Notes under the pieces: model-generated | The model's input: the letters and a program-made list of their open reading frames with translations, nothing else | The model's database searches: none | Told to the model about the DNA's origin: nothing | Position numbers and translations under genes: made by a program | In this document: piece by piece, positions 1,257 to 59,783 of the stretch | How the letters are laid out: each line of letters begins with the position of its first letter | How positions within the stretch are numbered: the stretch's first letter is position 1 | Origin: a virus | Taxonomy: Duplodnaviria > Heunggongvirae > Uroviricota > Caudoviricetes | Virus record (IMG/VR): IMGVR_UViG_3300028840_008153 | Span: 99,143-163,142 of that record | DNA: 64,000 bases | Reading direction: 5' to 3' (one strand)

Positions 1257-4055
1257 TCAGTTAACGTCCTCCCCGACGCCCACCCACTGAGCCACTGCGC
1301 CCCAGTTGATGCTTGTGGCCGCCTCGCCCGTTACACGGACTTCGAGGTTGTTCCCGTTTTCACTGACTTCCAGCTGCCAGTTCTGCTCATCACCACCCGA
1401 AGACGAGGAGGAGCTTCCGCACGTCTCCATGGTGGGCACTTCGCACGCGCCCACGACCACGCTGTCCGAGCCGTCACGATAGGCCGTGATTTCCCGGGTG
1501 AATCCGCGCCGATGGACGCCCCCGTCCTCATTTCCAATGACCATCAGTCGCATGTGGACGGCCGAACCCGCCGTGATGGGAATGCTCATCAGCAGCGTCT
1601 CGGTCGCGTCGGTCGTCTTCGCGTTGCCCGTCATGCGGTGATAGCCGCGTTCGGCCGTGTACGTGCCGCCCGCGCCATCCTGGAAGGCCAGACTGTTGTG
1701 GGCCAGTTCGCCGTCCTTGGCCGCCGTGGTGCGCCGCCCCATGGCGATGGCCGCAAGGCCACTGGCCGTGTTGTTGTCGCCGCCGACCACCGTGCCATAC
1801 GCGCCACTGACCGTGTTGGACACGCCGCCCAGCACGGAGCCGCCCGCCGCCGTGATCGAGACGTTCTTGCCCAGCCCGGAGGCATTCGTGCCGGCCGTCG
1901 AGACGTAGCCGATGCGCGCCACGATCACCGCGTTGAGACCGTAGTTCTTGATCTGGCTGCCGAACGACTGCGAGTTGATGCCGTTGTCGATACGCACTCC
2001 GGTGCTGATAATCGCGCCCGTCGTGTCGTTGATCGTGCCCGTGCGGTTGACGATCGTTCCCATGGCCACTGAGCTGACGGCGTGCCCCGTGTTGGAGTAG
2101 GCCGTGTAACAGTAGTAGCCCACAGCAACGGAGTTGGTCGCGTTCGCCTGCGACCAGAGGCCGTCGGCAAAGTTGTAGTCGGACGTGTAGACGCCGCCCT
2201 GGCCCCGCCCCGCGTAGCACGCGAAGCCCGTGGCCACGTTGCGCGAGCTTCCGTTGTTGGTCTTGCAGTAGTAGCCCATGGCGACCCCCCACGTGTAGGA
2301 GTCGTTGTACATGCCCATGGCCACCGACTTCGTGTAGCCGTCACCCGTGTAATTGTAGTTGCCGATCGCACAGGAGTCGTTGGCGAAAGCGTCGTTCCCA
2401 CGACCGACGGCCGAGTTGTAGCCGCCTTTACATTCGTTCTGCCGCCCGAAGGCCACGCCGCTGTATTCGACCGTGTTGTAGGAGCCAACGGCCACGCCGT
2501 GTCGCGCCGTGGACCCGTAGGTCTTGATGTAGTTGCCCACACCAAACGCCGCGCTCCACGGGTTGTAAGACCTGTTCTTGAACCCAACAGCGATCATGCG
2601 GTCGCCGTTGTAATTGATCGTGTTCTCAGCGCCGAACGCCAGACAGTAGTCGCCACCGTAGATCTTGTTGCGGCGCCCGACAGCCACGCAACCCCAACTG
2701 GTCGGGCTCTCCAGGCCGTTGATGTAGTTGTCCACGCCTATCGCAGAGGAGTTCGTGCAATAGCCGTAGATTTTGTTGGAGATGCCGAAGGCGGCATTGC
2801 GACCCGAGTCGGAGTCTCCCCGCTTGGCCGTCACGTAGTTCCAGTTGCCAAAAGCGAGATTACGCTCACCGGTGCTGGTGGTGTTTACGTAACCGACGGA
2901 GCCACAATAGTTTTCGTAGGCGTAGCAGAAAGACCCGAAAGTGAATGCCCCGGTGTCGTACGCCTTGCCGTAACGGCCGACCGTGATTGATTTACCGCCT
3001 GTGGCGTTGTTTCCGTTGCCGGCGGCAAAATCGTACCCGGTCGCAGAATTGGCCGTGTTGCCGTAACCAAAGGCGCTTGAGTAGTTGCCTCCCGCCCCGC
3101 CAGCCTGGTTGTTGACGCCAAACGTGCTGGAGCCGCCGCCCTTGGAACGGTTGCCACGATTTGCAAAGCCGGGCCCGAAGCCCGTACCCACAGCCACCGA
3201 CGAATAACCTGAAGCCTCGCTCTGCCCGCCCATCGCCACGGCGTACGTGCCGGAGGCAACCTGGTCGGCGTACTGGATGCGCGCCTGGATATCCAACGCA
3301 TAGGTGCCGCGCGCATCGCCGGGAATCTGTGTCTCGGTCGGGAAGTCGTACCCGCCGGAAGAGGACGATGACGAGGAAGAGAGCGGCAGCGGTGACGCGG
3401 GTCGGGCCAGCAGTGCGTTCACGCCGGTGCGGCGAAGCAGCAGGTTGGTGGGATTGACGGCAAGCGGCTTGTTGGTGCCGTCAAGGATCGTGCCCTGCTC
3501 TGTCTGCTCGGTATCGGCCAGAACCACGGTGCCAAGCTGCGAAAGCGTGGCAGGCGTGTCCGACCCGCCGGGACCGGTCGCTCCGGTTGTGCCGGTAACG
3601 CCCGTAACGCCTGTGACCCCAGCGCCTCCTGCCGATCCTGTTACTCCGGTAACGCCTGTCACGCCCTGAGAGCCGGCTGGCCCTGTTGCTCCGGTGACGC
3701 CGTTGGGCCCTATGGGTCCATTGGCTCCGGTGACACCTGTTACACCAAGGGAGCCCGCTGAGCCTGTCGCCCCGGTGACACCCGTCACGCCAAGGGAACC
3801 AGCTGGCCCCGTCGCTCCGGTAACGCCGTCCGTGCCTGCTGGGCCTGTCGCGCCCGTCACGCCGTCTGTTCCGGCAGAGCCCGTAACACCAGTAACGCCC
3901 GTAGCTCCCGTGACGCCCGTAACACCCGTGACGCCAAGCCCTCCCGCCGTAACGTCGACCTTGCGCGCGGCGTCGCTATTGTCAACTGGCGCGGGCAGCC
4001 CCTTCAAACGGTTGCCCTGCATGTCGATCGGGTTGAACATCGGCGTGTCGGCCAT
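1257..4055 (-). CDS. Tail fibre-like protein with a collagen-like (G-X-Y) domain and YadA/Hep_Hag-like head repeats
   Basis: 932 aa. N-terminus [35 protein letters not shown] resembles phage tail-fibre N-termini. It has a roughly 120-residue run of [10 protein letters not shown]... collagen triplets and a poly-Ser linker. The C-terminal about 600 aa is full of recurring NxVAxG/SVAMG/AFG motifs like trimeric-autotransporter head repeats. Confidence 0.65.
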
Positions 4056-4956: not shown

Positions 4957-5904
4957 TCAGTCTTCCATGGGCAGCGGATACGTTTCCCCGTCCTCGGCTA
5001 TCTCCGCCGGCCCTGTTGGCCCGGGCTCGTGCGTAGGCCGGGGCGGAGCGTTGTCGGGCGCGCCGGCCTTGCCGGGTATCGGACTCAGGAAAGGCTCATC
5101 CGCCCTGCGGCCCTCGGCCTGCGGACGCTGAGTGTAGCCTAAGGAAGCCAATCTGTCACGCGTCAGCTTCACCACTTCCTTCAGCGGCTTCGACAGATTC
5201 CCCGGCGTCTTCAGCGTCTCCAGAAAGTAGTGGGTCAGGGCTCCGCACGGGCGCCCGTTCACGTACGTGTCCGCGCTTGTCTGGTTGCTTTTGCAGCCAC
5301 TTACGAACCCCACCTCTAATCGCCCACACACGACCGCCCGGGGAGCGGGAGCTATGGATCGACTCAGACATGTGCGCTTCCTCCACTCGATGTCCACGGG
5401 CGTCGGGTACATCCTGGGGATCATGTCAGGCGCGTTGGGTACGGGCATGGCTCGGGTCAGATCGCCTGAGTGGCAGGAGTCGTTGACCCACGAGAAGAAG
5501 CAGCCCTTCGGGATGCGGCCGAACATGCGCACGAAGTCCTTGTCCGTGAGCATGTGGTTGAGGTCCCACTGAAAGTCAACGGGACACACGGCTTCGAGCA
5601 TTCCGTCGATCTCGTGGGCGTAGTCACGTGTTGGATACTGCACGCCATGGCCGGAGAAGTGGAAGAACACGCGAGCGCCCTTCCTCACCTTGACCAGCCA
5701 GTCGATGCGCTCCTTGATGGCCTGCGTGGTAGCTCGTTCGTCCACGAGCAGACGGATGTTCTCGGGGCTGAACCCGAAGACCTCCACCAGGGCCTCAGCC
5801 ATGTCGGAGACGTCGTTGACGCAGCCGGCCAGCGGAGCACCGGGGTAGCGATTGATCCCTACGAGGAGGGCTTTTTCTTCTCGTCTGAGTCCTTTGTCGC
5901 ACAT
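4957..5904 (-). CDS. Caspase-like peptidase (C14 family; metacaspase/orthocaspase-like)
   Basis: ALLVGINRYPGAPLAGCVNDV...FFHFSGHG (catalytic His) ... WVNDSCHSG (catalytic Cys): canonical caspase His-Cys dyad context. Confidence 0.65.
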   Translation of the reverse strand: MCDKGLRREEKALLVGINRYPGAPLAGCVNDVSDMAEALVEVFGFSPENIRLLVDERATTQAIKERIDWLVKVRKGARVFFHFSGHGVQYPTRDYAHEIDGMLEAVCPVDFQWDLNHMLTDKDFVRMFGRIPKGCFFSWVNDSCHSGDLTRAMPVPNAPDMIPRMYPTPVDIEWRKRTCLSRSIAPAPRAVVCGRLEVGFVSGCKSNQTSADTYVNGRPCGALTHYFLETLKTPGNLSKPLKEVVKLTRDRLASLGYTQRPQAEGRRADEPFLSPIPGKAGAPDNAPPRPTHEPGPTGPAEIAEDGETYPLPMED

Positions 5905-8900
5905 GACAGTTTTCTCCGTAGTGCTCGTTTCCTAAGAATAGCACCTGACTTGGCCAACGGGTAGTCATGATGCAGCGAGATGAAAGCCGGGTTGCGGTAT
6001 GCGCCGCTGGGGAACTTCTCCATGGCGGAGATGCGTGCCAGGCGCCCCTTCCAGTCCTCAGCCTCGTCCATCATCTGCCTGCGGGTGGCGTCGTCGAAGC
6101 CACCGCCCACCTTGCCCACGATCGGGCCCGTTGGGCTGAGACTGTAGTCAAAGCCGCCAGCGGCACCCTCGTACTTGCCCTTACCTGGGAAGACGTTCTG
6201 AATCCAGACATCATGCTCGGGCCGTGGCTTGACCTTGATCGCGCGTCCGGGCCTGGCAGCGGGCCACGCCACGACGCCCTCGTAGGTTGCGGGGTGTTCG
6301 CCGGACACGATGCGCTCATAGAGGGCCTTCTGCTCTTCAGGCGTCCGTGCGGTCTCAGGCAGCCGGAACTGACGATCCGGCAGGTGCTTCATCAGCTCCT
6401 GCAGCTTCTGCATGCGCTCCTCGCCGGTCAGCGTGCCGGGCTCAATCGGCGTCTTGCCCCAGCGCACCACGTCGAAGAGCATGTTCCTCATCTGGACATT
6501 CTGTGCCTTCTGCTTCTCCAGCGAGTTGGATAGCGCTGCGTTGAGTATGCCGCCCAGCTCCTGTACCGGTACTGCCTTGCCTTCACGTTCCCCGTACACC
6601 TCGCCACGGACGATCGTCCCTTGTAACTCCTTGGGAATATCGACCTTCGCCCCGCCAGGACCGAAGATCTTGTAGGTATAAAGGATCGGCCGTCCCGTCT
6701 TGGAGATTCGGTAGGAGAGGGCTTCGATTCGATCACCCAAGAGATGATACAGCGCGCTGGCGCCATCCACTTTCTCCTGAATCATGTAGTTGGGGTCAAA
6801 CAGCTTCTCCACCTTGTCGGCGGGCACCACGCCATACTTCAGCTTCTTGATGCCCACCTCTTCAGGCTTTCCCTTGAGCAGCTTGGCCGCGCTCACCGGC
6901 GTGGTGTTGATCATCAGCCACGCGCCGCCCTGCTGCTTGCGCTGACGGGCGCCTGCCGCGCTCGGCGGCCCGGACATGCGCACCATCGTGTAGAACTCAG
7001 GGAAGCGTTTGTGCGTGACCACGAACTGGATCTTGTCGCGTTCGGCCTTGGTCACGATGACCGAGCCGTAATCATGCTTCTTGACCGTGCCCTTGCCGTA
7101 GCCTTCCTCGATGTTGCCCTCGAACTCAGCGTACTGCCCACGATGAAGCGGCTGCTGGTAGAGCATGATCTTCTTACCAGGCTCGGGCAGCTCCTTGCGT
7201 GTGGCCCACGAGTAGAGCGAAGGCTCTCCGCCTTCCCTGCCCAACCTGACGTCGTAGTGGGGGCCGGCCTTCTGCGCCAGATGACGCTGCACGACCCATT
7301 TGAGGACCTCGCCGTGAGGGATCTGCCTGGGATCGCCAAAGCGTTTGGGATCGGGCAGGCCCGGAGCATAGTCCGCTTCGCCCTTCTTCAGTAGCTTGTA
7401 ACCTCCATAACTGGCAACAGGAACGCCAACCGCAGCCAGTGCGGTGAGCAGCTTGTTGCGCCGTATGGCGCCCAAGAGCCCCTGCTGCTTCTTCCAGTGG
7501 CCGTGCAACAACCTCTCGGCAAGCTCGGTATTCTCGGGTGTTAGGCCGTGCCCCGCGCGTTCGGCGAACTCTCGCAGACTCGCCACGCTCTTGCGCGCAA
7601 ACTCTGGATCACCCTCGGGCACATCAAAAAGCGCCAAAAGCGGCGCTATTCGGCCGGCCACGTCTTTCTGGCTGGAAGGGATCTGCAGCCCAACCTGTTT
7701 CCCCTTGGAGAAAAGCTCTGTGCCAAGGGGCACGTCCGTCAGCTTGCTCTTCTTCCAGTTGGCAAGATCCATGTCGGCGACTGCCTCGCCATATATCTGA
7801 CCGCGCGGGTCATTTCCACGGAAGAACTCCTTACCCATCTGGTAGAAGTCAGGCTCGACGTTTGTGAGATGCTGCGCCTTGAAGTAAGGCAGAGCCGCTT
7901 TCTTCTCGATTGTTGGTAATCCTGTGATCTTCTCAGCCAATTCCCATAGGAAATCCTGAGACTTTGGTAATTCCGTGTCATCCCATAGCAGCTCTGCGGC
8001 CTTTCTTATCTCCAGACCACGATTGGCCTCTTCGCTCGACTCCTTGAGCACTTCGAGGAACTGCGTGATGAGCTGCTGTTTGGTCTCGGAGAGGTTGGAC
8101 ATGTACTGGTCGGCGCCCGTGTCCTTCTCCACCATGCCCCAGCGTTGCATTAAGCCCCGCTTGGGGTTGGAGAAGTAGCGTCTGACCTTCACAACACGCT
8201 CTTCTTCAGGCAGGTGAGCGTGGCTTCCGTGCCGGACCGCTCGCCCTGTCATCTGATCGAGCCTGGACTGGTTCCAGTGCGGCTCCATAAGCTGCATGAG
8301 CTTGGTGCCTTTGAGGTCCAAACCCTCCGAGCCGGCGCCTGATACCAGTAAGATCTTCACATTGCCGGAGTTGTAATCCTCCACGATCTCACGGCGCTCG
8401 CTGTCCTTCAATCCGCCCGTGAACACGTGATGTGGAACGCCCTTCTTCTCCAACGCCTCGGCCAGCGGTAAGATACCGGATTGCAGGTAGTTGGAGTACA
8501 CCACGGCCTTGAAGTTGGGATCGCTCTCCAGCCCCTTGTAAAGGTCGCCCAGCATGCGCCTTAGCTTGGGAGAGTGCGCAACCGCCGAGCCCTTCATCGT
8601 CTCGTCGAAGGGCATGGGATTGTTGGACAGCTGGCGCACGGCCGAGAGGAATGCGTTGAGCTGGGCGGACTCGGCTTTGCTGGGTGGCAGGTTCTTCTTC
8701 ACCTTGTAGGCCAGCCCGACGTCCTCATTGAGGAACGCCTCATACATCGCCGTCTGCTCAGGCGTCATCTCGACTTCGATGTCTTCCTCTTCGACACGTG
8801 GGAAGTCGCCTTCGAGCGGATGGTAGTCAACACGGCCCTTGACGAGCCGTTTCAGCTCCTGCTGGTTCCTAAGGCGCTCCACCATTCCGGGCTTAACGCC

Positions 8901-9497
8901 GTGCCAAGTCTTCTGCCACCACGTGGGCCTTACCTCTACATTCTCCACGAACTTGTCACGGAAGGATTTATGAGATCCAGGCGGGTTTCGCCCCTGTGCC
9001 AGCACCTTGAGCATGGGCACGAACTCACTGGGATCGTTGCGCACGGGCGTGCCGGTGAGGAACATGACCTTGCCGTGGGCCTTTGTCGGGAGCTTGCTGA
9101 CTTTCGTGCCTGGCCGACCCATCCGATGTGCCTCATCGAAGACGGTTAGACCGGCCTGTGGCAAACCTTTGCTCACAGCCTTGTTATAAGACCGCACATC
9201 GTAGTCTGGTGCGCCCTCTGGCTGGTCGGTGAACTTCGACAGCTCCTTGCGGTAGTTCTCACGAAGCGCAGCAGGCACCACAACTGCTTTGGGGCCCTCG
9301 GTTTGCTCGCCTGCGGCGATGCTGGAGAGCGTCTTGCCCGATCCCAAGGCGTGATAGGCCAGAAGTGCAGGCTGTTGCTCCATCTTGGCAACAACACGCT
9401 CCTGCTGAGGCTGCATTTCCACCTCAGGCTTCAATGCGGCCTTCTTGGCTCTCTGCTTGGCGATCTTGATCAGGCCCATTTCGGAACCCATTCCCAA
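5859..9497 (-). CDS. SNF2-family helicase fused to a LigD-like 3'-phosphoesterase plus ATP-dependent ligase (nucleotidyltransferase) domain
   Basis: 1212 aa. N-terminus: GSGKT (motif I), DEAHR (II), LTGTPVRND (III), QMTGRAVRHGSH (VI). Middle: HYDVRLGREGGEPSLYSWATRKELP (LigD phosphoesterase HYDLR...SWAVPKG signature). C-terminus: KVDG (ligase motif I), YEGVVAW (IV), AIKVKPRP (V). Confidence 0.7.
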   Translation of the reverse strand: MGMGSEMGLIKIAKQRAKKAALKPEVEMQPQQERVVAKMEQQPALLAYHALGSGKTLSSIAAGEQTEGPKAVVVPAALRENYRKELSKFTDQPEGAPDYDVRSYNKAVSKGLPQAGLTVFDEAHRMGRPGTKVSKLPTKAHGKVMFLTGTPVRNDPSEFVPMLKVLAQGRNPPGSHKSFRDKFVENVEVRPTWWQKTWHGVKPGMVERLRNQQELKRLVKGRVDYHPLEGDFPRVEEEDIEVEMTPEQTAMYEAFLNEDVGLAYKVKKNLPPSKAESAQLNAFLSAVRQLSNNPMPFDETMKGSAVAHSPKLRRMLGDLYKGLESDPNFKAVVYSNYLQSGILPLAEALEKKGVPHHVFTGGLKDSERREIVEDYNSGNVKILLVSGAGSEGLDLKGTKLMQLMEPHWNQSRLDQMTGRAVRHGSHAHLPEEERVVKVRRYFSNPKRGLMQRWGMVEKDTGADQYMSNLSETKQQLITQFLEVLKESSEEANRGLEIRKAAELLWDDTELPKSQDFLWELAEKITGLPTIEKKAALPYFKAQHLTNVEPDFYQMGKEFFRGNDPRGQIYGEAVADMDLANWKKSKLTDVPLGTELFSKGKQVGLQIPSSQKDVAGRIAPLLALFDVPEGDPEFARKSVASLREFAERAGHGLTPENTELAERLLHGHWKKQQGLLGAIRRNKLLTALAAVGVPVASYGGYKLLKKGEADYAPGLPDPKRFGDPRQIPHGEVLKWVVQRHLAQKAGPHYDVRLGREGGEPSLYSWATRKELPEPGKKIMLYQQPLHRGQYAEFEGNIEEGYGKGTVKKHDYGSVIVTKAERDKIQFVVTHKRFPEFYTMVRMSGPPSAAGARQRKQQGGAWLMINTTPVSAAKLLKGKPEEVGIKKLKYGVVPADKVEKLFDPNYMIQEKVDGASALYHLLGDRIEALSYRISKTGRPILYTYKIFGPGGAKVDIPKELQGTIVRGEVYGEREGKAVPVQELGGILNAALSNSLEKQKAQNVQMRNMLFDVVRWGKTPIEPGTLTGEERMQKLQELMKHLPDRQFRLPETARTPEEQKALYERIVSGEHPATYEGVVAWPAARPGRAIKVKPRPEHDVWIQNVFPGKGKYEGAAGGFDYSLSPTGPIVGKVGGGFDDATRRQMMDEAEDWKGRLARISAMEKFPSGAYRNPAFISLHHDYPLAKSGAILRKRALRRKLSCATKDSDEKKKPSS

Positions 9498-18362: not shown

Positions 18363-18661
18363 GCCGTAAGCGGGTCCTCTTCTGCGGGAGTCGCCTGCAC
18401 GGGAGGGGCGTCACCCTGTTCGATGGGCGGCACCACGCGGGCCGAGCGGTCCTGAAGCTGGGGCTTGCCCGTCTTGCCGCTGACCTTCAGGATACTGACG
18501 CCGTGCGTCAGGCCGTCCTTGTTCAGCGTCTGGAGAACGCCCGCCGTGGCCTCATTGCCCTTGCCGTAGAAGATCAGGTCCAGCTCAAGGACACGCGCCT
18601 TGCCGTCAAACTTGACGTTCTCCACCTCTAGATCGGAAGGTAGAGTCAGTTTCATCTTCAT
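18359..18661 (-). CDS. Hypothetical protein (100 aa)
   Basis: ORF with ATGA-type overlap to the downstream gene. Confidence 0.4.
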   Translation of the reverse strand: MKMKLTLPSDLEVENVKFDGKARVLELDLIFYGKGNEATAGVLQTLNKDGLTHGVSILKVSGKTGKPQLQDRSARVVPPIEQGDAPPVQATPAEEDPLTA

Positions 18662-19604
18662 GCCTTTGCATCTCCATTAACGCCTCTTCCTCGATGACCG
18701 CATGAACGCCGGCCTGATCGTAAGCACAGGCGCCGCATGCGTTGGCAAAGCGCAGGGCCGGTACAAGGTCCTCCCCGCCCGCCAGTTTGAAAGCCAGTCC
18801 CGCCAGGAACGAATCGCCGCAGCCCGTGGGATCGCCCATCTCCCGGGCGCGTACGGGGATGCTGTAGCGCTGGTCGTAGAACCAGCCGTCCCCGTCCTTG
18901 TGCCAGTAGCCGTAGCAGCCGCGCGCCCCGGCGGTAACCACTACCAGGCGGGACAGCGCCCCGCCCGGCGCCGGGGTCCTTGCGCCGTGTACGCCACCGG
19001 CAGCGTGGAACTCACTCATGTTGGGCGTGAGAATGTCCACGTCGCCGTAGCGGGAGAAGTCCTTGCCCTTGGGGTCCACGATCACGCCCCACTCGCAGGT
19101 GCGGTGTTCGCACGCCCGCAGCCGGGACATCAACTGGGACGTCACGATGCCCTTGCCGTAATCGGAGACCACGATCATGTCCACCTTCGGGCCTTTCTCG
19201 ATCTCCTTGAGAAAGATGTCCACCTCTTCGGGCTCGGCGTTCTGCAGTCTTTCCTGGTCCACACGAACGATATGACGCCCCCGCTTCGTGAGGTAGCGGG
19301 TCTTCATGGTGGTCTGGCGCCGGTTCCGTTTCACGAAAACGACCTCGGTGTCGGGCGCGCGGGTGATCTTCTGGCTGAGCGTTCCGGCCTCTTCATCCGT
19401 GCCCGTGGCACTGAGCAGCAGCACGCGCGCTCCGAGCGACACGAGGTTGTTGGCCACGTTCGCAGCGCCGCCGGCCTTCATCTCCGTTCCAATGGGACGG
19501 ATCTTCAGGGCGGTTTCGTCCTCCGGGGAGATGCCGACCACCTCGCATGTCACGTGGCGGTCGAGCATCACATCCCCGACAACGACTACGAACGGGCGGT
19601 GCAT
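18606..19604 (-). CDS. D-glycero-beta-D-manno-heptose-7-phosphate kinase-like (PfkB family, RfaE/HldE domain I)
   Basis: Real start MHRPFVVVVGDVMLDRHV...ISPEDE...GGAANVANNLVSLGA... matches the HldE kinase-domain N-terminus. C-terminal DPTGCGDSF is the PfkB anion hole. The upstream 120 codons of track ORF 18606..19964 are Arg-rich read-through. TGATG overlap with the upstream gene. Confidence 0.7.
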   Translation of the reverse strand: MHRPFVVVVGDVMLDRHVTCEVVGISPEDETALKIRPIGTEMKAGGAANVANNLVSLGARVLLLSATGTDEEAGTLSQKITRAPDTEVVFVKRNRRQTTMKTRYLTKRGRHIVRVDQERLQNAEPEEVDIFLKEIEKGPKVDMIVVSDYGKGIVTSQLMSRLRACEHRTCEWGVIVDPKGKDFSRYGDVDILTPNMSEFHAAGGVHGARTPAPGGALSRLVVVTAGARGCYGYWHKDGDGWFYDQRYSIPVRAREMGDPTGCGDSFLAGLAFKLAGGEDLVPALRFANACGACAYDQAGVHAVIEEEALMEMQRHEDETDSTFRSRGGERQV

Positions 19605-20206
19605 CACATGTTCTCCACGATCCCCAGCGCGGCGTTGCCCAGCACCTGAACCTCCTCCTCGGGAGGCATCACCTCGAACTCCACGTACCGGCTGAGCTGC
19701 TCGACGTTCTTGGTCGTGGCGTTCATGTTCTTCGGGCGCATCAGTCCCTTCATGCCGGAGACGGTGAACACGTCCAGCGCCTCGGCCACGGCCATGTTCT
19801 TGGACTGCAGGGCCAGCGGGTCCAGCACGGGCACCAGCCAGTGCCGCGTCACGTAGAAGCGGCGCTTGGCCCGGTTGCAGAACTGCTGGGCGTGCATCCA
19901 CTGCCTGAACCAGGGAAAGCTCTCGCTGTCCATGATGTTCAGGACGAAGTTCCACACGTTGCACTGGCCAATCACGGGCTCCTCGAAGTAGACGTGTATC
20001 CCACGCGTCTCCTTGGGCTTGCCCTTCATGTGGTCCTCGGCCCCGAAGGCACGCATGAGATCCGTGTTAACCTCCGCGTACTCGTAGACGGGGCCCAAGG
20101 CGAAGAGAACGTAGCCGTCCCGACGGAGTTCCTCCATCGAGGCGGCTGCGTCCGTCTTGGGGTCCTTGAGTGGACTGAAATCAGAAGGAAGTTCGGGTCC
20201 GTCCAT
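19604..20206 (-). CDS. Hypothetical protein (about 200 aa)
   Basis: Trimmed to the MMDGPELPSDF start that overlaps the upstream stop. Confidence 0.4.
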   Translation of the reverse strand: MDGPELPSDFSPLKDPKTDAAASMEELRRDGYVLFALGPVYEYAEVNTDLMRAFGAEDHMKGKPKETRGIHVYFEEPVIGQCNVWNFVLNIMDSESFPWFRQWMHAQQFCNRAKRRFYVTRHWLVPVLDPLALQSKNMAVAEALDVFTVSGMKGLMRPKNMNATTKNVEQLSRYVEFEVMPPEEEVQVLGNAALGIVENM

Positions 20207-34488: not shown

Positions 34489-34591
34489 CGTAGCCTCTCT
34501 CCCATAGCTAACGAAAAACGAAGCACTGCCCGGCACCGAAGTGCCGGGCAGCGCGCCCAAGTTCACAAGTAAGGACGCCGCCTTCTGGCAA

Positions 34592-35210
34592 GGCCCACCC
34601 GCAAGCGCGTGGAGGCACCGTCCGTATCCGATCGATCTCAGAATCGATCACCGGCTCACCCGCAAGCGCGTGGAGGGGCCCTCGGGATCGCTGCGATGCA
34701 GCGGCCCACCCGCAAGCGCGTAGAGGTACCTACTCGGCCATGGCTGACGCGAATTCCTCTGAGGGCCCACCCGCAAGCGCGTGGAGGTACCTTGAGGGGG
34801 GGGCTGTCCTCACGGCCATCACGTACGACCCACCCGCAAGCGCGTGGAGGTACCCTGGTGCTGAAGTGGGTCGGAACTCCCACCCGCAAGCGCGTGGAGG
34901 TACCCTGGTGCTGAAGTGGGTCGGAACTCGGGACACGGGCCCACCCGCAAGCGCGTGGAGGTACCGGGCTATATTTTTTTTCAGACGGTGAAGTAGCACG
35001 GCCCACCCGCAAGCGCGTGGAGGTACCCAGATGTCTCCCCACTCGTAAGTGTGAGGCTCCGGCCCACCCGCAAGCGCGTGGAGGTACCGCTCTCAGTCCA
35101 GATCAGCCCACTATTCTTGGGGGCCCACCCGCAAGCGCGTGGAGGTACCACTTCTGTGGCGCCGGTTTTGGCTTTTGGGATGGGCCCACCCGCAAGCGCG
35201 TGGAGGTACC
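34592..35210. CRISPR. CRISPR-like array 1: 11 repeats of 28 nt (GGCCCACCCGCAAGCGCGTGGAGGTACC), spacers mostly 33 nt
   Basis: Repeat starts read directly at 34592, 34653, 34703, 34764, 34826, 34876, 34937, 35000, 35061, 35122 and 35183. The two leftmost repeats are degenerate, so the trailer is at the low-coordinate end. The repeat can fold as CCAC-CCGC-AAGC-GCG-TGG. Spacers are unique except spacer 5, a 22-nt prefix copy of spacer 6. Confidence 0.8.
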
Positions 35211-35320
35211 TCTATGACAAAATGACATGGTTTGGGTGGTCAGCTCATGGAGCTTGGTGATTACTGGAGCAGTCCCTCCAGCCTGGCGCTCACCCCGGGC
35301 GCGAAGCCATGCCATTGGTA
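35211..35320. other. Leader-like flank shared by both arrays (copy 1)
   Basis: About 85 nt, GGTCAGCTCATGGAGCTTGGTGATTACTGGAGCAGTCCCTCCAGCCTGGCGCTCACCCCGGGCGC, is nearly identical at 38463..38540. It contains the hairpin CTGGAG-cagtcc-CTCCAG. Confidence 0.5.
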
Positions 35321-35321
35321 A

Positions 35322-36044
35322 TCAACTGAACTTCTTGATGATCTTCGCCAGCTCTTTCACGCTGGTGCGAACCACCTGACGCATGTTGTGTCCTACACAC
35401 TCCGCCAGAAGATACCTTGCATCGTTCGGGTCCTCCAGGACGTTGATGATGCGAAGATACTTCGGCTGCCGCGTCTTGGGACGCCGCTCATGGGGAGGGA
35501 TCTCTCCCCGTTCGGGACGGTCATAGTCGAAGATCACCTTGGCCTCTTCGGCTGTGACCTTGCTGAAGTTCTTCTCGACGGCCGTGTTCTTCTTGATCAC
35601 GACTGTCGTGGCGTCGGCATTGATGCGCTTCTGCGTTTCTTCGGGCAGCCTCAGGAAAAGATCCGTGGTCACCCATTCCTTCTCGAACGCGACCTTGCTC
35701 ATCACGCCCGCGCCGTACGCGTGGATCTTGGTGAAAAGGCCGTACGAAATGCCAGAACCAGCAACCACTTCGTTGTAGAACTCCTCCACCTGGTGGTCGG
35801 CGAGCTGGCCGATCTTCTTCTTGTGTTTCAGAAGCACCTTGCGCATGCCGGCTTTGTAGGCGACCTTGAGCTTCTCGATCTCCTTGCCGACAGCCTCGCA
35901 CAGCTTCTCAAACTCAGCCTCAGGAAGACCGGAGCCCCCCAGTCCCGGAGGAATTCGTCGAGGGGGCTTGCATGCTGGACTAATCCGTGCCATCCGTTGC
36001 CTCCTTTTTCCTTTTTCCGTAGCTGCTGACAGAGTCCACGACAT
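35322..36044 (-). CDS. Uncharacterised protein (240 aa, or 223 aa from the alternative start at 35993) encoded between the two arrays
   Basis: The alternative start MARISPACKPP (ATG 35993) has an AAGGAGG RBS at 7 nt spacing and overlaps the 575-aa gene's stop by 14 nt. No recognisable family; a Gly-rich segment VVAGSGISYGLFTKIHAYGAG. Confidence 0.5.
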   Translation of the reverse strand: MSWTLSAATEKGKRRQRMARISPACKPPRRIPPGLGGSGLPEAEFEKLCEAVGKEIEKLKVAYKAGMRKVLLKHKKKIGQLADHQVEEFYNEVVAGSGISYGLFTKIHAYGAGVMSKVAFEKEWVTTDLFLRLPEETQKRINADATTVVIKKNTAVEKNFSKVTAEEAKVIFDYDRPERGEIPPHERRPKTRQPKYLRIINVLEDPNDARYLLAECVGHNMRQVVRTSVKELAKIIKKFS

Positions 36045-37707
36045 CCGTGGAAATCTCCTTCATCAGATCCTGCAGCTTGACCAAACGCTGCTCTTCCCCT
36101 TCGGCAACCTCCTTCCGTTTGAGCTTGATCTGGGCCTCCTCTTCTTCCTCCGACAGGTTTCGGGCCTTGATTTCATCGACGGCGTCGGCCGTCTTTTTCT
36201 TCTTTTCCTCCTTCCACGTGCAGGGCCCGCTGTACGCGATGTAGAATTTCCGGCAGCGCTGGTGCAAGGCTTCATCAAAGAAGGCCCACTGGAAAGGCTC
36301 GATGCCTTCCAGTCGCTCCTCAGGCGTGTTTGGCCCGGGAAGCGCGAACAGGCTGAGGTTGCCGCAGGCCCAAGGCTTCAGCCTTCTTACGATGTTCCGC
36401 GCCAAAATCCTGATTTCCTGCTCCACCACCTTCGCCCTGCGGACGGATAGGTCCTGCAACTGCGCTCGCCATTTGGTTGCTGCCCGGCTGCGTCCATCGA
36501 CGGACTGTATGAGGTCCTTCAGCTTGTTCTTTCTCTGCCGAAGGTCCTTCAACCGGCGAACCGTGTTGTTCAGCGGAATGTGGTACATGCGCCACTTGTC
36601 CGCCTTTTCCTTGGCGCGCGTCTTCTTCTCGACAGCGACGTGCACGAGGAAGTCCAGCCCCTCATACTTGTTCTCGCCGGGAACCTCCTTGATGTACACG
36701 TACGCGCTGCGCTTGTGCTTCTGGGCCTGCCGTTGAACGGGGGGCCGAACGTAGGACACGTCCAAGAAGAGCCGGTCTTTTCGATCCAGCCGCAAGCAGG
36801 CGCACTGGTACTCCCAAGCAAGTTGCTCGACGACCTTGACCTTGCCGGTCTTCTTGTTCTTCTGCAGCTTCGGAGCCGGCTGCGGCATGAAGTGGTTGAA
36901 CACGCTGGCGGAGACGTCATCCAGCTTTTTCACCTCCGTCTTCGTCTTCCCGTTCTGCCCCATTTCAAACGGTCCTTTTGTGAGCAACCGAATGGGCGTG
37001 TCCGTGTGTGGCTCGATATTGAGTGAGAACCCCCACTTCTCCAGAATGCCGTCTTCATCGTCCTCCTCACGCTCCTTGAAGGGAACGAACTCCCGCCGGG
37101 TCTCATAACCCATGATCTTCAGCGTCGAGTGCTCCATCAAAGGAAGCGCCCTTTCCATGGAGACATGAAGAATGTCCCTGGAAATGCCCCTGCGCGGGTC
37201 CTTCGTCGTGAGCGCCGCCTTCACGTCTGAGCGCATGCAGTCCCAAACGGAAGCCTTGAAGCGGAAGGGATGATGCTTGTCGTGAGCGAATTCCTCCATC
37301 ATGGCCGCCCACTCGCCGTGAAGGCCGTAGTAGGTCACGTTGGGGTTGAAGTCCGTCCCCCGCGTCACGAGCGCCAGGAACTGCTCGATCCGCTCCCTGT
37401 CAAGCTCCGCGCGAATGTCACCGTCCTTCGTGAAGTGAAGTCTGCCCCCTAAACGAAGGCAGGCACCCCCGATGTCCACGAGCCGCTGGAGCATGAAACG
37501 GTAAGCCTGCAACATCCTGATGACCCGTTGTCTCTCCTCGAAGGTCTCGCAAACGACCCTGAAGGAGTGGCAGCACTGAAGCCAATCTTCCTGGCCGGGT
37601 TTGTTCAACGCGCCCGGCTTCCGGCCGTCGCCTCGAACCCCGCGCTTCCCTTTTTTCTTGGTCTTCTTCTTGGTTTTCTCTGCGGCCTTTTTCAGTAGCA
37701 CGGCCAT
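35980..37707 (-). CDS. Uncharacterised 575-aa basic protein between the arrays; candidate nucleic-acid-binding effector
   Basis: Real ATG at 37707 (MAVLLKKAAEKTKKKTKKKGKRG...) with AAAGGAGG RBS; the track ORF starts at GTG 37734. Lys-rich N-terminus, scattered Cys clusters (QCAC, WACGN, CRK...GPC), and a C-terminal TADAVDEIKARNL that weakly resembles a RuvC-III (DADxNAAxNI) motif. Confidence 0.6.
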   Translation of the reverse strand: MAVLLKKAAEKTKKKTKKKGKRGVRGDGRKPGALNKPGQEDWLQCCHSFRVVCETFEERQRVIRMLQAYRFMLQRLVDIGGACLRLGGRLHFTKDGDIRAELDRERIEQFLALVTRGTDFNPNVTYYGLHGEWAAMMEEFAHDKHHPFRFKASVWDCMRSDVKAALTTKDPRRGISRDILHVSMERALPLMEHSTLKIMGYETRREFVPFKEREEDDEDGILEKWGFSLNIEPHTDTPIRLLTKGPFEMGQNGKTKTEVKKLDDVSASVFNHFMPQPAPKLQKNKKTGKVKVVEQLAWEYQCACLRLDRKDRLFLDVSYVRPPVQRQAQKHKRSAYVYIKEVPGENKYEGLDFLVHVAVEKKTRAKEKADKWRMYHIPLNNTVRRLKDLRQRKNKLKDLIQSVDGRSRAATKWRAQLQDLSVRRAKVVEQEIRILARNIVRRLKPWACGNLSLFALPGPNTPEERLEGIEPFQWAFFDEALHQRCRKFYIAYSGPCTWKEEKKKKTADAVDEIKARNLSEEEEEAQIKLKRKEVAEGEEQRLVKLQDLMKEISTDVVDSVSSYGKRKKEATDGTD

Positions 37708-37818
37708 GTGGCCTCCTTTCAAAGCGCCTCCCACGGGAGGCTCAGGTCATGGACCCTGACGATTGCCGGAGCTTCCGGCATAACGCTCGCCCTAAGCGCA
37801 AACACGAATGACGAGATC

Positions 37819-38462
37819 GGCCCATCCCCACACGTATGGGGCAGCCTCAAAATCAAAGCGGTAAACTGCCGTCCCCATCGGCCCACCCCCAACTGAAAAA
37901 GGAGAACGGAACGGGTCCATCCCTACGCGTATGGGGCAGCCGCCAGCAACATCCTGCGCCACAGCCCTTGACTCGGCCCATCCCTACGCGTATGAGGCAG
38001 CCGCATGGAAATGCGTGGGCAAGTTGACGGATGAGGGCCCATCCCCACTGACACCATCTCAGACGCGCTGCGGCCCATCCCCATGCGCGTGGGGCAGTCG
38101 CGCAACTGCCGAACTGCTGAATCTACGTAGCGGGCCCATCCCGCGTGTATGGGGAAGCCTGGGACCGCGCTGAAGACCCGGCTACCGGGCGGGCCCATCC
38201 CCACGCGTACGGGGCAGCCCCCCCCTCGGGCAGTATCCGTGCTCCTCGGTCCACGGCCCATCCCCGCGCGTATGGGGCAGCCAACGAGGTACTGCTGGGG
38301 CAGGTGCAGGCCCTGGGCCCATCTCCACGCGTATAGGGCAGCGGCACAGACAATGGGAGGATAGCCATGAAAGAGGGCCCATCCCCACGCGTATGGGCAG
38401 CCCGGACATACTCGCAGACCGCAGGATGCACGCCGGGCCCATAAGCCAATATGACACAGGTG
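37819..38462. CRISPR. CRISPR-like array 2: about 10 degenerate repeats of 28 nt (GGCCCATCCCCACGCGTATGGGGCAGCC), spacers 32-36 nt
   Basis: Repeat starts at 37819, 37914, 37975, 38072, 38133, 38192, 38255, 38316 and 38375. Heavily mutated units sit at 37880 and 38036, with a truncated remnant at 38435. Repeat hairpin is CCCCA-cgcgta-TGGGG. It shares the 5' GGCCCAYCC with the array-1 repeat. The array looks decaying, with 1-3 mismatches per repeat. Confidence 0.7.
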
Positions 38463-38540
38463 GGGATGGTCAGCTCATGGAGCTTGGTGATTACTGGAGC
38501 AGTCCCTCCAGCCTGGCGCTCACCCCGGGCGCAAAACCGT
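38463..38540. other. Leader-like flank shared by both arrays (copy 2)
   Basis: Near-identical to 35228..35315. Confidence 0.5.
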
Positions 38541-38607
38541 GTCATAGAAATTGGCTGTACTTTATTTTAACGCAAACGCGCGGAGAAATTAGGGGGCGCC
38601 GGTAGGG

Positions 38608-57939: not shown

Positions 57940-58016
57940 TGGTAGCGGGGGCAGGACTTGAACCTGCGACCTCCGGGTTATGAGCCCGACGAGCTGCCTA
58001 ACTGCTCCACCCCGCA
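57940..58016 (-). tRNA. tRNA-Met (anticodon CAT), initiator-type
   Basis: Minus-strand sequence TGCGGGGTGGAGCAGTTAGGCAGCTCGTCGGGCTCATAACCCGGAGGTCGCAGGTTCAAGTCCTGCCCCCGCTACCA. It has three G-C pairs at the base of the anticodon stem, an A11:U24 pair and an unpaired 1:72 position (U·U), with CCA encoded. About 85% identical to E. coli tRNA-fMet. Confidence 0.85.
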
Positions 58017-58058: not shown

Positions 58059-59783
58059 TCAAACCTCCACCGCCTCGATTTCGCCAACCCACTTCGCCGG
58101 GCTCAACCCATCCTTGGCGAACATGGAAACGACGTCGAACACGGTGTCCGAGAACCCGCCGACCTGCAGGATGCTGGGATCGCCAGCGCCCTTCACCTGC
58201 GTGGTCGAGTACGGCGTGATGTCGAGACACACCAGCTTCGCCTGCTTGTTGTGGCGTTTGAACCTCTGCCACGCCTTCTGAAGCTCGGTGCCGCGCCGGC
58301 CGCCATACGGGTGGGTACTGTCAATCCAGCTCTCGTAGTCCGAGACCAGGATCACGGTGTCCGCCGGGATGTTGTTGTCGTTGAGGTGATTCACCGTCAA
58401 CGAACAGTTCGTCCCGCCCGAAGGCAGCTCCGACAGGATGCGGGCGTTTGTCATGACCGTATCCCGTGGGTTGAGCCTTGGGTACTCGGACATGGTCGTC
58501 TGGTTGCCAAAGTAGTAGGCGCGCTGCTGCACGCGCCGACCGGGGAGCGCAAGATGATCACTGAACGGGATCACCTGGGCTTCCGGGTTCTTGCGCAAGA
58601 TCGCCGCCGCCATCAACGCCGCCACGTGGACACAGCTCGTCTTCGTGGAGTGGCCTCTCGGCCCCCGGCTCTGAGTGACCGGGCTGTGCATGCTCCCTGA
58701 GATATCAGGGAACACGAACACTCGGCCCTCGATTGCCGGCACGTTCTCGATGGCGACTTCCATCGCCTGTTCAAGCGCGGCCTGAACGGACTGCGGGATC
58801 TCCGGGTTGAGGTTCAGGTAGGCGGTCAGCAACTGGTACGGAAACTGACGGGCCTTCGTGATCTCTTCCCGGTTCTGCAGCCGATTCTCGACCTTCTGGC
58901 GCAGCTCCGCGTTTCCCAACACCCCGTACTTCAGGAAGTTGTTGAGGTTCATGCGCGTGAACTGCCACCTGCCGTTCCGGGCCAGGATCTTCCATTCGGC
59001 CTCGCCGATGCCGACGCCGTCGAGCATCTGGAAGGGCACATCGGGGATCGTCACGTCCTTCACGCCCGCCTTGTGCGCGGTCTTCCAGTTCTCGTATTCC
59101 TTCACCATCTCCGGCAGCTTGTCCGGCTCGTACCGGCGCGTGACCTTCTTGCCCGTAGCGGCAGGCTCCACGCGCTCCTTCCAACCGTCTGGGCCGACCG
59201 GGTCGAAACCCAACAGGTAGCCAAACAGCGCCTCCTTCTGAGGCGTGTTTGGGCTTGGGTGGGCAAGCCGGATCACATCCACGAGAGACGGATCGTTGCC
59301 GACCGAGCCCCGGAAGATGGTCTCCGGGCGGGTGCGATCGAACCAGCGCTGGATCGAGCGCCGCTGCGAAGAAGCCAGCGACTTGCGCCCGAAGACGCCC
59401 GAGCGGACGAACTGCGCGAAGTTGCGCAGCATCTTCGCGTTGTCGATCACCCGATCGAACACCTTGTCGGCCAGGTCACGAGGAGCCTTGCCCAGCGAGA
59501 GGCTCGCCGCCAGGAAGGCCGGCATGTCCTTCATGAGCCCCTTCTCACGGGCGTAGATGGCCAGCTTGGCGATGAACATGTCGTCGACATGCGCGAGCGT
59601 CGACTTGACCGTGTCCAGTTGCCCCTTGGCGGAGACGTAATACGTGTCACCGAAGCATCCGGTGACCGCGTACTGCGCCAAAAGCTCCTTGGGGCCCCGG
59701 CTGTACGCCCGGCCTCCGGCCTCGTTGACGGCATCCGTTTCCGGTGCCTGAGTGTGCGTGCTGAAAAGGCTTTTGTTAGCCAT
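58059..59783 (-). CDS. rsr: Ro60/Rsr orthologue (TROVE plus VWA domains)
   Basis: N-terminal TROVE (…GGRAYSRGPKELLAQYAVTGCFGDTYY…) and C-terminal VWA with the MIDAS motif VFVFPDISGSMHSP; GGGGAGGG RBS. Confidence 0.8.
   Translation of the reverse strand: MANKSLFSTHTQAPETDAVNEAGGRAYSRGPKELLAQYAVTGCFGDTYYVSAKGQLDTVKSTLAHVDDMFIAKLAIYAREKGLMKDMPAFLAASLSLGKAPRDLADKVFDRVIDNAKMLRNFAQFVRSGVFGRKSLASSQRRSIQRWFDRTRPETIFRGSVGNDPSLVDVIRLAHPSPNTPQKEALFGYLLGFDPVGPDGWKERVEPAATGKKVTRRYEPDKLPEMVKEYENWKTAHKAGVKDVTIPDVPFQMLDGVGIGEAEWKILARNGRWQFTRMNLNNFLKYGVLGNAELRQKVENRLQNREEITKARQFPYQLLTAYLNLNPEIPQSVQAALEQAMEVAIENVPAIEGRVFVFPDISGSMHSPVTQSRGPRGHSTKTSCVHVAALMAAAILRKNPEAQVIPFSDHLALPGRRVQQRAYYFGNQTTMSEYPRLNPRDTVMTNARILSELPSGGTNCSLTVNHLNDNNIPADTVILVSDYESWIDSTHPYGGRRGTELQKAWQRFKRHNKQAKLVCLDITPYSTTQVKGAGDPSILQVGGFSDTVFDVVSMFAKDGLSPAKWVGEIEAVEV

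Follow-up and report, generated by a model that had tools for sequence, protein, structure and literature searches.

A divergent Cas12f/TnpB-fold protein, predicted to be nuclease-dead, in a two-array CRISPR-like locus of a phage

What is the function of a phage protein that is encoded between two CRISPR-like arrays and that matches no family model by itself? The question is raised by a 64,000-nucleotide (nt) stretch of IMG/VR record IMGVR_UViG_3300028840_008153 (Caudoviricetes; positions 99,143 to 163,142), hereafter the window, in which a preliminary description had singled out a protein of 575 amino acids (aa) for its faint likeness to TnpB and Cas12. Its open reading frame (ORF) and its position between the two arrays are both borne out:

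35980..37707, minus strand: effector (P0001), a 575-aa Cas12f/TnpB-fold protein without the RuvC catalytic residues and the TNB/RuvC-III segment

The ORF opens with ATG. A GTG at 37734 is an alternative start that would give 584 aa (ORF 35980-37734); because AAAGGAGG lies 5′ of the ATG at 37707, the 575-aa form is the likely product. The N-terminus is basic, as originally described (15 K/R versus 3 D/E in the first 40 residues), and the whole protein has an isoelectric point (pI) of 9.6. The answer proposed here, with moderate confidence, is that this protein, naturally nuclease-dead, serves a phage-borne, Cas12f/TnpB-derived CRISPR system as its effector.

The effector is a very divergent relative of the Cas12f/TnpB fold. 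As a single sequence, it retrieves nothing from Pfam, NCBIfam, PADLOC, PHROGs or, by phmmer, the PDB, and a word-index homologue search with the effector alone or with a profile returned the effector itself only. A phmmer search over 1.84 billion cluster representatives yielded 11 relatives (352-662 aa, 23-29% identity, E = 6e-20 to 1e-4), which together with the effector make up the 12-sequence family alignment and profile. P0003 used alone as a query for further relatives found nothing, and a hand-made degenerate motif search added just two true family members; its nine other matches, including Variovorax, are due to chance.

The 12-sequence profile matches SpCas12f1 (9i8y, E = 3.6e-11), CnCas12f (8hr5, E = 2.4e-10), AsCas12f (E about 1e-9), and the natural dCas12f 9n9c (E = 1.8e-5), and one relative matches the NCBIfam model guided_TnpB (E = 2e-7). 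On the basis of these matches to solved Cas12f/TnpB chains and to guided_TnpB, the fold assignment is secure. The profile search against solved structures returned Cas12f/TnpB (E = 3.6e-11 to 1e-9), and structure prediction, a check advised in the preliminary description, agrees. The AlphaFold 2 model of the effector has a predicted local distance difference test (pLDDT) score of 77 (a single-sequence prediction, at pLDDT 40, was unusable), and its top 24 Foldseek matches are all Cas12f, dCas12f, or TnpB. Membership in the TnpB/Cas12 superfamily holds at the level of the fold, in that a WED-REC-RuvC arrangement is recognisable by both profile and structure. The RuvC part has an RNase H-like core, and no unrelated family accounts for the protein; either a missing core or such a family had been named as grounds for abandoning the idea.

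The active site, however, is not that of a Cas12f nuclease. When aligned as a single stretch, the family consensus r-v-l-e-v-t-f-k pairs with K-I-M-G-I-D-L-G of AsCas12f, so that the true RuvC-I Asp column is Y338 in the effector (RSAYVYIK versus KIMGIDLG); the D-to-A cryo-electron microscopy mutant 7wju reads GIALG at this stretch. Similarly, the consensus C-G-k-i-k-v-y-g-l-P pairs with C-G-T-I-Q-M-E-D-L, and the RuvC-II Glu column is F454 (CGNLSLFALP versus CGTIQMEDL). Both columns are non-acidic in 12 of the 12 family members. All of them stop 20-165 residues past a Y-K-A-x-x-x-G-I strand, an endpoint that corresponds to the start of the Cas12f zinc-finger/RuvC-III segment, and the conserved core can be followed along the natural dCas12f 9n9c as far as residue 362 of 365, making the truncation points equivalent. 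The remaining C-terminal tails are non-conserved, charged, and helical and have no CxxC; the zinc-finger/TNB insert and RuvC-III are therefore missing. A zinc finger is ruled out for the family, CxxC being absent from the effector and all 11 relatives. Because both acidic columns are lost and the zinc-finger/RuvC-III segment is missing in all 12 sequences, the family is predicted to be nuclease-dead, with the D-E-D triad and the TNB/zinc finger of Cas12f nucleases gone.

These alignments redraw the motif map of the preliminary description, which had the fold right and the motifs wrong; it had seen a weak likeness to TnpB/Cas12, and the protein is now predicted to be catalytically dead, not a weak Cas12 nuclease. 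The peptides that it quoted are present (LFLDVSYVRP at residues 313-322, FLVHVAVEKK at 353-362, and TADAVDEIKARNL at 506-518). LFLDVSYVRP, read as RuvC-I, is really the last conserved WED strand (family motif L-x-x-x-V-x-Y-x-R-P), and TADAVDEIKARNL, read as RuvC-III, sits in the charged, helical, non-conserved tail that most relatives lack. The D/E/D residues suggested for mutagenesis do not exist in the effector. The Cys clusters also dissolve on inspection into ten dispersed residues (45, 46, 53, 83, 157, 302, 304, 448, 485, and 496), among which C448 alone is conserved in the family.

The effector is accompanied by a second protein:

35322..35993, minus strand: partner, a 223-aa basic protein (pI 9.5) with no recognised fold, overlapping the effector stop by 14 nt

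An overlap between the effector and the downstream gene had been recorded and exists, although it likely involves a 223-aa product and 14 nt instead of 240 aa and 65 nt. The shorter form is preferred because three observations agree: AGGAGG lies 6 nt upstream of the ATG at 35993, gene callers choose this start, and the homologues share the start pattern M-x-K/R-I-x-P-A. The effector and the partner are both basic (pI 9.3-10). The partner has no match in Pfam, NCBIfam, PADLOC, or PHROG, no credible match in the PDB, and no sigma-70 region 2/4 or helix-turn-helix (HTH) match. When a hidden Markov model built from four loci is run over 1,154 ORFs, its only matches are the ORFs downstream of the effector in four further loci (E = 7e-20 to 1e-8); a further profile search returned only members already found. 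The partner is conserved, usually overlapping or adjacent to the effector, in at least eight loci. In the alignment of seven members, the start Met is the sole invariant column, and no acidic or His residue is invariant. A cytochrome assignment is rejected: the match to a c555 trimer reduces to a single weak helical match, listed three times over (single-domain E = 0.02), and CxxCH occurs in no member.

Both genes are embedded in a set of repeat arrays and structured elements, given here in minus-strand order, with the effector and the partner lying between array A2 and leader 1:

38459..38545, minus strand: leader 2, a conserved structured element, upstream of array A2 and sharing 92% identity with leader 1
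37819..38403, minus strand: array A2, degenerate, repeat approximately GGCTGCCCCATACGCGTGGGGATGGGCC (28 nt), eight recognisable repeats plus eroded ones
35229..35315, minus strand: leader 1, a conserved structured element upstream of array A1, forming an 87-nt direct repeat with leader 2
34592..35210, minus strand: array A1, intact, in which GGTACCTCCACGCGCTTGCGGGTGGGCC (28 nt) occurs 11 times, separated by 33-nt spacers
34523..34554, minus strand: intrinsic terminator, 14-bp stem plus T-run, just past the last A1 repeat

In A2, spacers are 32-35 nt and the spacing is 60-63 nt, with gaps of 95 and 97 nt that hold eroded repeats. The minus-strand transcription unit ends at the terminator. Array transcription follows the direction of the genes, from leader through array to terminator, since the degenerate repeats of A1 stand at its low-coordinate, leader-distal end, the terminator follows the array, and each of 10 repeats taken from related loci folds better in the sense orientation than as its reverse complement. 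At 34829-34928 in A1, a 50-nt unit (one repeat and 22 nt of the adjoining spacer) is perfectly duplicated in tandem. The duplication is missing from an otherwise identical 198-kb ENA contig (L001); it is a genuine variant of the array or else an artefact of assembly. Between A2 and the ribosome-binding site of the effector, the perfect hairpin GCCTCCCGTGGGAGGC (37727-37742, minus strand) might act in processing, in attenuation, or as a partial terminator that separates array and gene transcripts.

Each leader, at about 100 nt, resembles a structured RNA (minus strand 35213-35320 and 38440-38550 in the window; 1762-1878 and 2922-3038 in locus L015). The consensus fold of the window pair has a 10-bp closing stem in which four pairs differ between the copies and all remain paired, two of these changes being compensatory; in the L015 leader, a 7-bp hairpin keeps pairing through four changed pairs. 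With only two copies per locus, this pattern is no more than suggestive of structured RNAs. A promoter or leader, a scaffold RNA, and a processing signal are candidate roles.

The association of gene and array is a conserved module. Of the related loci whose flanks are long enough, nearly all repeat the order leader, array, effector, partner of about 230 aa, leader, array, and contigs of 198, 233, and 548 kb are among them:

L006, 5-kb contig: array, effector, 267-aa partner
L008, 3.3-kb contig: array, effector, start of partner
L009, 4.3-kb contig: effector, array (contig ends)
L010, 233-kb contig: Cas1, effector, 234-aa partner, array
L011, 2.7-kb contig: effector, 243-aa partner, repeat at contig end
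L012, 548-kb contig: array, effector, 241-aa partner, array
L013, L014, L021, and L026, 2.9-15.8-kb contigs: effector, 240-aa partner, array
L015, 5.2-kb contig: effector, array, 216-aa partner, array

Gene-oriented arrays with a 61-nt period adjoin the relative in L006, L008, L009, L010, L012, L013/14, L015, L021, and L026, and the linkage holds for every locus with enough flanking DNA. The geometry is the same in all loci, with a repeat of 28-29 nt and a spacer of 32-33 nt (48 of 56 pooled spacers) adding up to the 61-nt period. The repeats diverge between loci yet keep a central hairpin, and in the loci with two arrays (the window, L012, and L015) the same leader stands on both arrays even where their repeats differ.

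Adaptation genes are seen in one locus only. The Cas1 of L010 (99-1025), just upstream of the effector, is a type I-E Cas1e (TIGR03638, 375 bits against a cutoff of 215.6); no Cas1 is present in the window or the other loci. This gene lies at the very end of the 233-kb contig, 98 nt from the end, and any further cas genes would lie beyond it. No Cascade gene (cse1, cse2, cas7, cas5, or cas6e) and no cas3 is found in the flanks of any locus, the window covering 64 kb of the 198-kb genome. A member of the L013 type adjoins an AbiEii/DUF6088 toxin-antitoxin-like pair and a DNA methylase (L013 4805-6448 and 8234-9340), a context that suggests a defence island or mobile element instead of a huge phage.

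How would such arrays guide the effector? Cas12f normally requires a long trans-activating CRISPR RNA (tracrRNA) as a scaffold. An ungapped scan of seven loci for an anti-repeat performed no better than shuffled repeats, although gapped or short bipartite pairing could escape it. Leader-repeat duplex energies are likewise no better than shuffled controls, and cognate pairs are no better than swapped ones. Rfam has no match in the locus, and no omega-RNA-like or other known RNA was found. Since no anti-repeat rises above controls and Rfam finds nothing, the simplest reading is that of a tracrRNA-free CRISPR RNA (crRNA), whose hairpin would serve as a handle.

The pooled 56 spacers give only two marginal matches in phage and plasmid collections, both from L015. 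One match, at 28/28 (E = 5e-3), is to a hypothetical gene of plasmid NZ_CP107895.1 from Streptomyces sp. NBC_00467, and the other is to a Brucella phage (26/28, E = 0.7). Two L015 spacers other than the one with the Streptomyces match have the 11-mer CACTCGCACGC in common (arrays 1876-2210 and 3036-3355); this and the Streptomyces match are possible hints of an actinobacterial mobile-element target. The window arrays are identical in five assemblies save for the one 50-nt duplication, and the array of the L013 type is identical in four, with the limit that some of these assemblies may share raw data. No spacer turnover is seen, which fits fixed guide sets.

On this evidence, the effector most likely serves to bind DNA under crRNA guidance without cleaving it, and the output would be produced by or together with the partner. 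It is hypothesized that both flanking arrays are transcribed from the minus strand and that their 28-nt hairpin repeats give rise to crRNAs that load into the effector without a tracrRNA. The retained WED, REC, and RuvC-core scaffold would serve guide binding and R-loop formation. The effector would then bind complementary DNA and leave it uncut, because the RuvC-I Asp, the RuvC-II Glu, and the zinc-finger/RuvC-III segment are lost. Most likely, a target in the host or in a competing mobile element would be silenced, at the level of its transcription or its replication, either through steric block (as in Cas12m, Cas12c, TldR, and the proposed CRISPR-associated dCas12f repressors), through the co-translated partner of about 230 aa, or through both. 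In this scheme the fold, the loss of the catalytic elements, the conserved linkage of effector, partner, and arrays, and the polarity of the arrays are shown, and the loading of crRNA, the binding of DNA, the role of the partner, and the biological target are inferred.

Several points weigh against this proposal. The binding of crRNA and DNA and the interaction between effector and partner are predictions, the partner is without a recognisable fold and its role is a guess, and the effector model has a predicted template modelling score of 0.55, leaving the packing of its domains uncertain. The tracrRNA expected for Cas12f was not detected, and a 28-nt repeat is short for proteins of this type. 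The 56 spacers show no self-target or protospacer in the window or L001, the three spacers queried against IMG/VR have no protospacer there, and array A1 has none in INPHARED. Finally, with static arrays and an eroding A2, the system may be fixed or decaying, not adaptive.

Four other explanations were weighed. The one that survives best, although unlikely, is that of an RNA-guided recruiter, in which the dead effector finds the target and the partner provides the real activity, as a nuclease or another DNA- or RNA-modifying enzyme, so that targets are destroyed. The conservation of the partner beside the effector in at least eight loci speaks for it, and section 12 of PMC10910872 describes precedents in Cas12k with Tn7 and in Cas12 with Cas3, IscB, or Mu transposase. 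However, the partner matches no nuclease or enzyme family in Pfam, NCBIfam, PADLOC, PHROGs, or the PDB, and its seven-member alignment offers no invariant acidic or His residue.

A less probable explanation would make the effector a transcription factor in the style of dCas12f-sigmaE or TldR, with fixed guides acting on host or phage promoters and a partner that contacts RNA polymerase or a sigma-like factor. Arrays that are static across assemblies are what regulatory guides would show, and the C-terminal truncation is that of natural dCas12f. In addition, a structured RNA element precedes each array here, and covarying elements upstream of arrays are reported for CRISPR-associated dCas12f (PMC13472631). 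Against this, searches match the partner to neither sigma-70 region 2/4 nor an HTH, no spacer matches within the 64 kb of phage DNA, and the Cas1e beside one member suggests at least ancestral adaptation.

It is still less probable that these are type I-E arrays that hijack a host Cascade, with the effector as an unrelated passenger (a domesticated TnpB with some other RNA, or an anti-defence factor). The hairpin repeats and the 28-29 plus 32-33 nt geometry are type I-E-like, the sole adaptation gene seen is a type I-E Cas1e, and no cas genes stand beside the arrays of the window. Yet arrays and effector occur together in every long-enough locus despite about 25% identity and diverged repeats, and neither an omega-RNA-like element nor any other known RNA was found. 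Moreover, none of 185,579 reference genomes contains the A1 repeat core, a result that gives no support to a hijacked host array system, and the core is likewise absent from the JGI metagenome collections. Least probable is that the protein is still an active nuclease, relying on catalytic residues that went unrecognised or on completion of the RuvC site in trans: the TnpB/Cas12 survey PMC10691335 records rearranged yet active RuvC sites, and in 7 of the 12 members the position two residues ahead of the RuvC-I column is acidic (E in L-E-V), but this Glu is replaced by Y336 in the effector, neither catalytic column conserves an acidic residue, the segment with the third catalytic Asp is gone in all 12, and the partner has no similarity to Cas12f C-termini.

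The proposed guided, nuclease-dead binder has known counterparts. Truncated, RuvC-dead derivatives of Cas12f and TnpB are already known as RNA-guided DNA binders (PMC13472631, PMC10705468, and PMC10691335). Guided by RNA, C-terminally truncated dCas12f binds DNA, and one cluster of CRISPR-associated dCas12f proteins is proposed to comprise repressors (Hoffmann et al., Nature 2026, PMC13472631). The present family likewise combines a Cas12f fold with an inactivated RuvC site and a C-terminal truncation. Its sequence kinship to natural dCas12f (9n9c) is nevertheless remote, the profile match (E = 1.8e-5) being weaker than to active Cas12f, and its members are longer (455-662 aa versus about 365 aa). 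In dCas12f-sigmaE, the operonic partner is an extracytoplasmic function sigma factor (rpoE) and a single chimeric guide remains after loss of the array, whereas the family has a partner of about 230 aa that is neither sigmaE nor HTH and keeps multi-spacer arrays of type I-E geometry with leaders. Natural dCas12f is found on Bacteroidota chromosomes, the family on huge-phage or mobile-element contigs.

TldRs share the same traits, as TnpB-derived, RuvC-inactivated, truncated RNA-guided DNA binders that are often phage-encoded (PMC10705468). Their guide is a single omega-RNA-like molecule from the 3′ end of the gene, and their genes neighbour fliC or oppF, in contrast to the multi-spacer arrays, the leaders, and, in one locus, the Cas1 of the family. 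Neither fliC nor oppF is a neighbour among the called genes of the family loci; FliS is present on the P0007 contig only, several genes away. The inactivated V-U variants, such as V-U24, resemble the family as CRISPR-associated Cas12-like proteins with a non-canonical or inactive RuvC site. V-U24, the catalogue entry that most merits comparison, has in PMC10691335 a “noncanonical RuvC-I” and a small associated HTH protein of unknown function; the partner of the present family shows no HTH match. The family itself is described neither in section 12 of PMC10910872 nor in the main text of PMC10691335, whose V-U catalogue is in the supplement.

Other type V systems are further removed. Cas12f/Cas14 (type V-F) likewise has an adjacent CRISPR array, but the family lacks the D-E-D triad and the zinc finger, shows no detected tracrRNA, and has an extra conserved partner. 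V-F repeats are roughly 36-37 nt, compared with 28-29 nt in the family. Interference by binding in Cas12m (V-M) and Cas12c (V-C) is a functional analogy for the proposed mechanism. The tnsB, tnsC, and tniQ families of Cas12k CRISPR-associated transposons (type V-K) are among the neighbours in no family locus. With type I-E, the family shares the 28-29-nt hairpin repeats, the 32-33-nt spacers, the 61-nt period, and, at one locus, Cas1e; its effector is nonetheless class 2 (type V-like), and no Cascade or Cas3 genes are seen beside any member.

What differs from the known systems is the combination of extreme divergence, invisible to Pfam, with multi-spacer arrays, type I-E geometry and one Cas1e on huge phages and mobile elements, together with a partner that is no sigma factor and has no recognisable HTH and with no detected tracrRNA. 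Tentatively, and with rather less confidence than the nuclease-dead effector itself, the locus may represent a new huge-phage CRISPR subtype of mixed origin. Such a subtype would unite an adaptation and array module of type I-E style with a RuvC-less, Cas12f-derived, crRNA-guided DNA binder that is obligately paired with a partner of about 230 aa and novel fold and with a structured leader RNA, and it would carry a novel RNA-guided activity, for example control of genes in the host or in rival elements.

The window is phage DNA, with tail-fibre, portal, and helicase-ligase matches, and its sequence is also found on contigs of 198.3-198.5 kb. A 1212-aa fusion (5859-9497, minus strand) joins SNF2-type helicase, LigD 3′-phosphoesterase, and ATP-dependent DNA ligase domains, a repair-type combination that is unusual for a phage. 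The 932-aa tail-fibre gene contains collagen-like tandem repeats at 3727-3935 (periods of 9, 18, 36, and 45 nt), and a PfkB-family carbohydrate kinase at 18606-19964 (minus strand, E = 2e-29) is a possible auxiliary metabolic gene. A Ro60 homologue with TROVE and Ro60 vWA domains (58059-59783, minus strand) lies beside the sole tRNA gene, tRNA-Met (57940-58016, minus strand). Ro60 genes are often accompanied by Y-RNA-like genes; none was found near this one by Rfam at the gathering threshold.

In recent work, dead derivatives of TnpB and Cas12 (TldR and dCas12f-sigmaE) have turned out to act in nature as RNA-guided transcription factors, and each new partner of such a protein has exposed a new RNA-guided activity. 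The function of the present partner could therefore disclose a new programmable activity, and it would show how phages turn guide RNAs on hosts or rivals while leaving the DNA uncut. The family, an independent lineage, could also yield a scaffold for DNA binding that is compact (455-575 aa), needs no tracrRNA, and has a repeat of just 28 nt. How CRISPR modules recombine is a further question on which the family bears, since it joins a type V effector to type I-E-style arrays and Cas1e.

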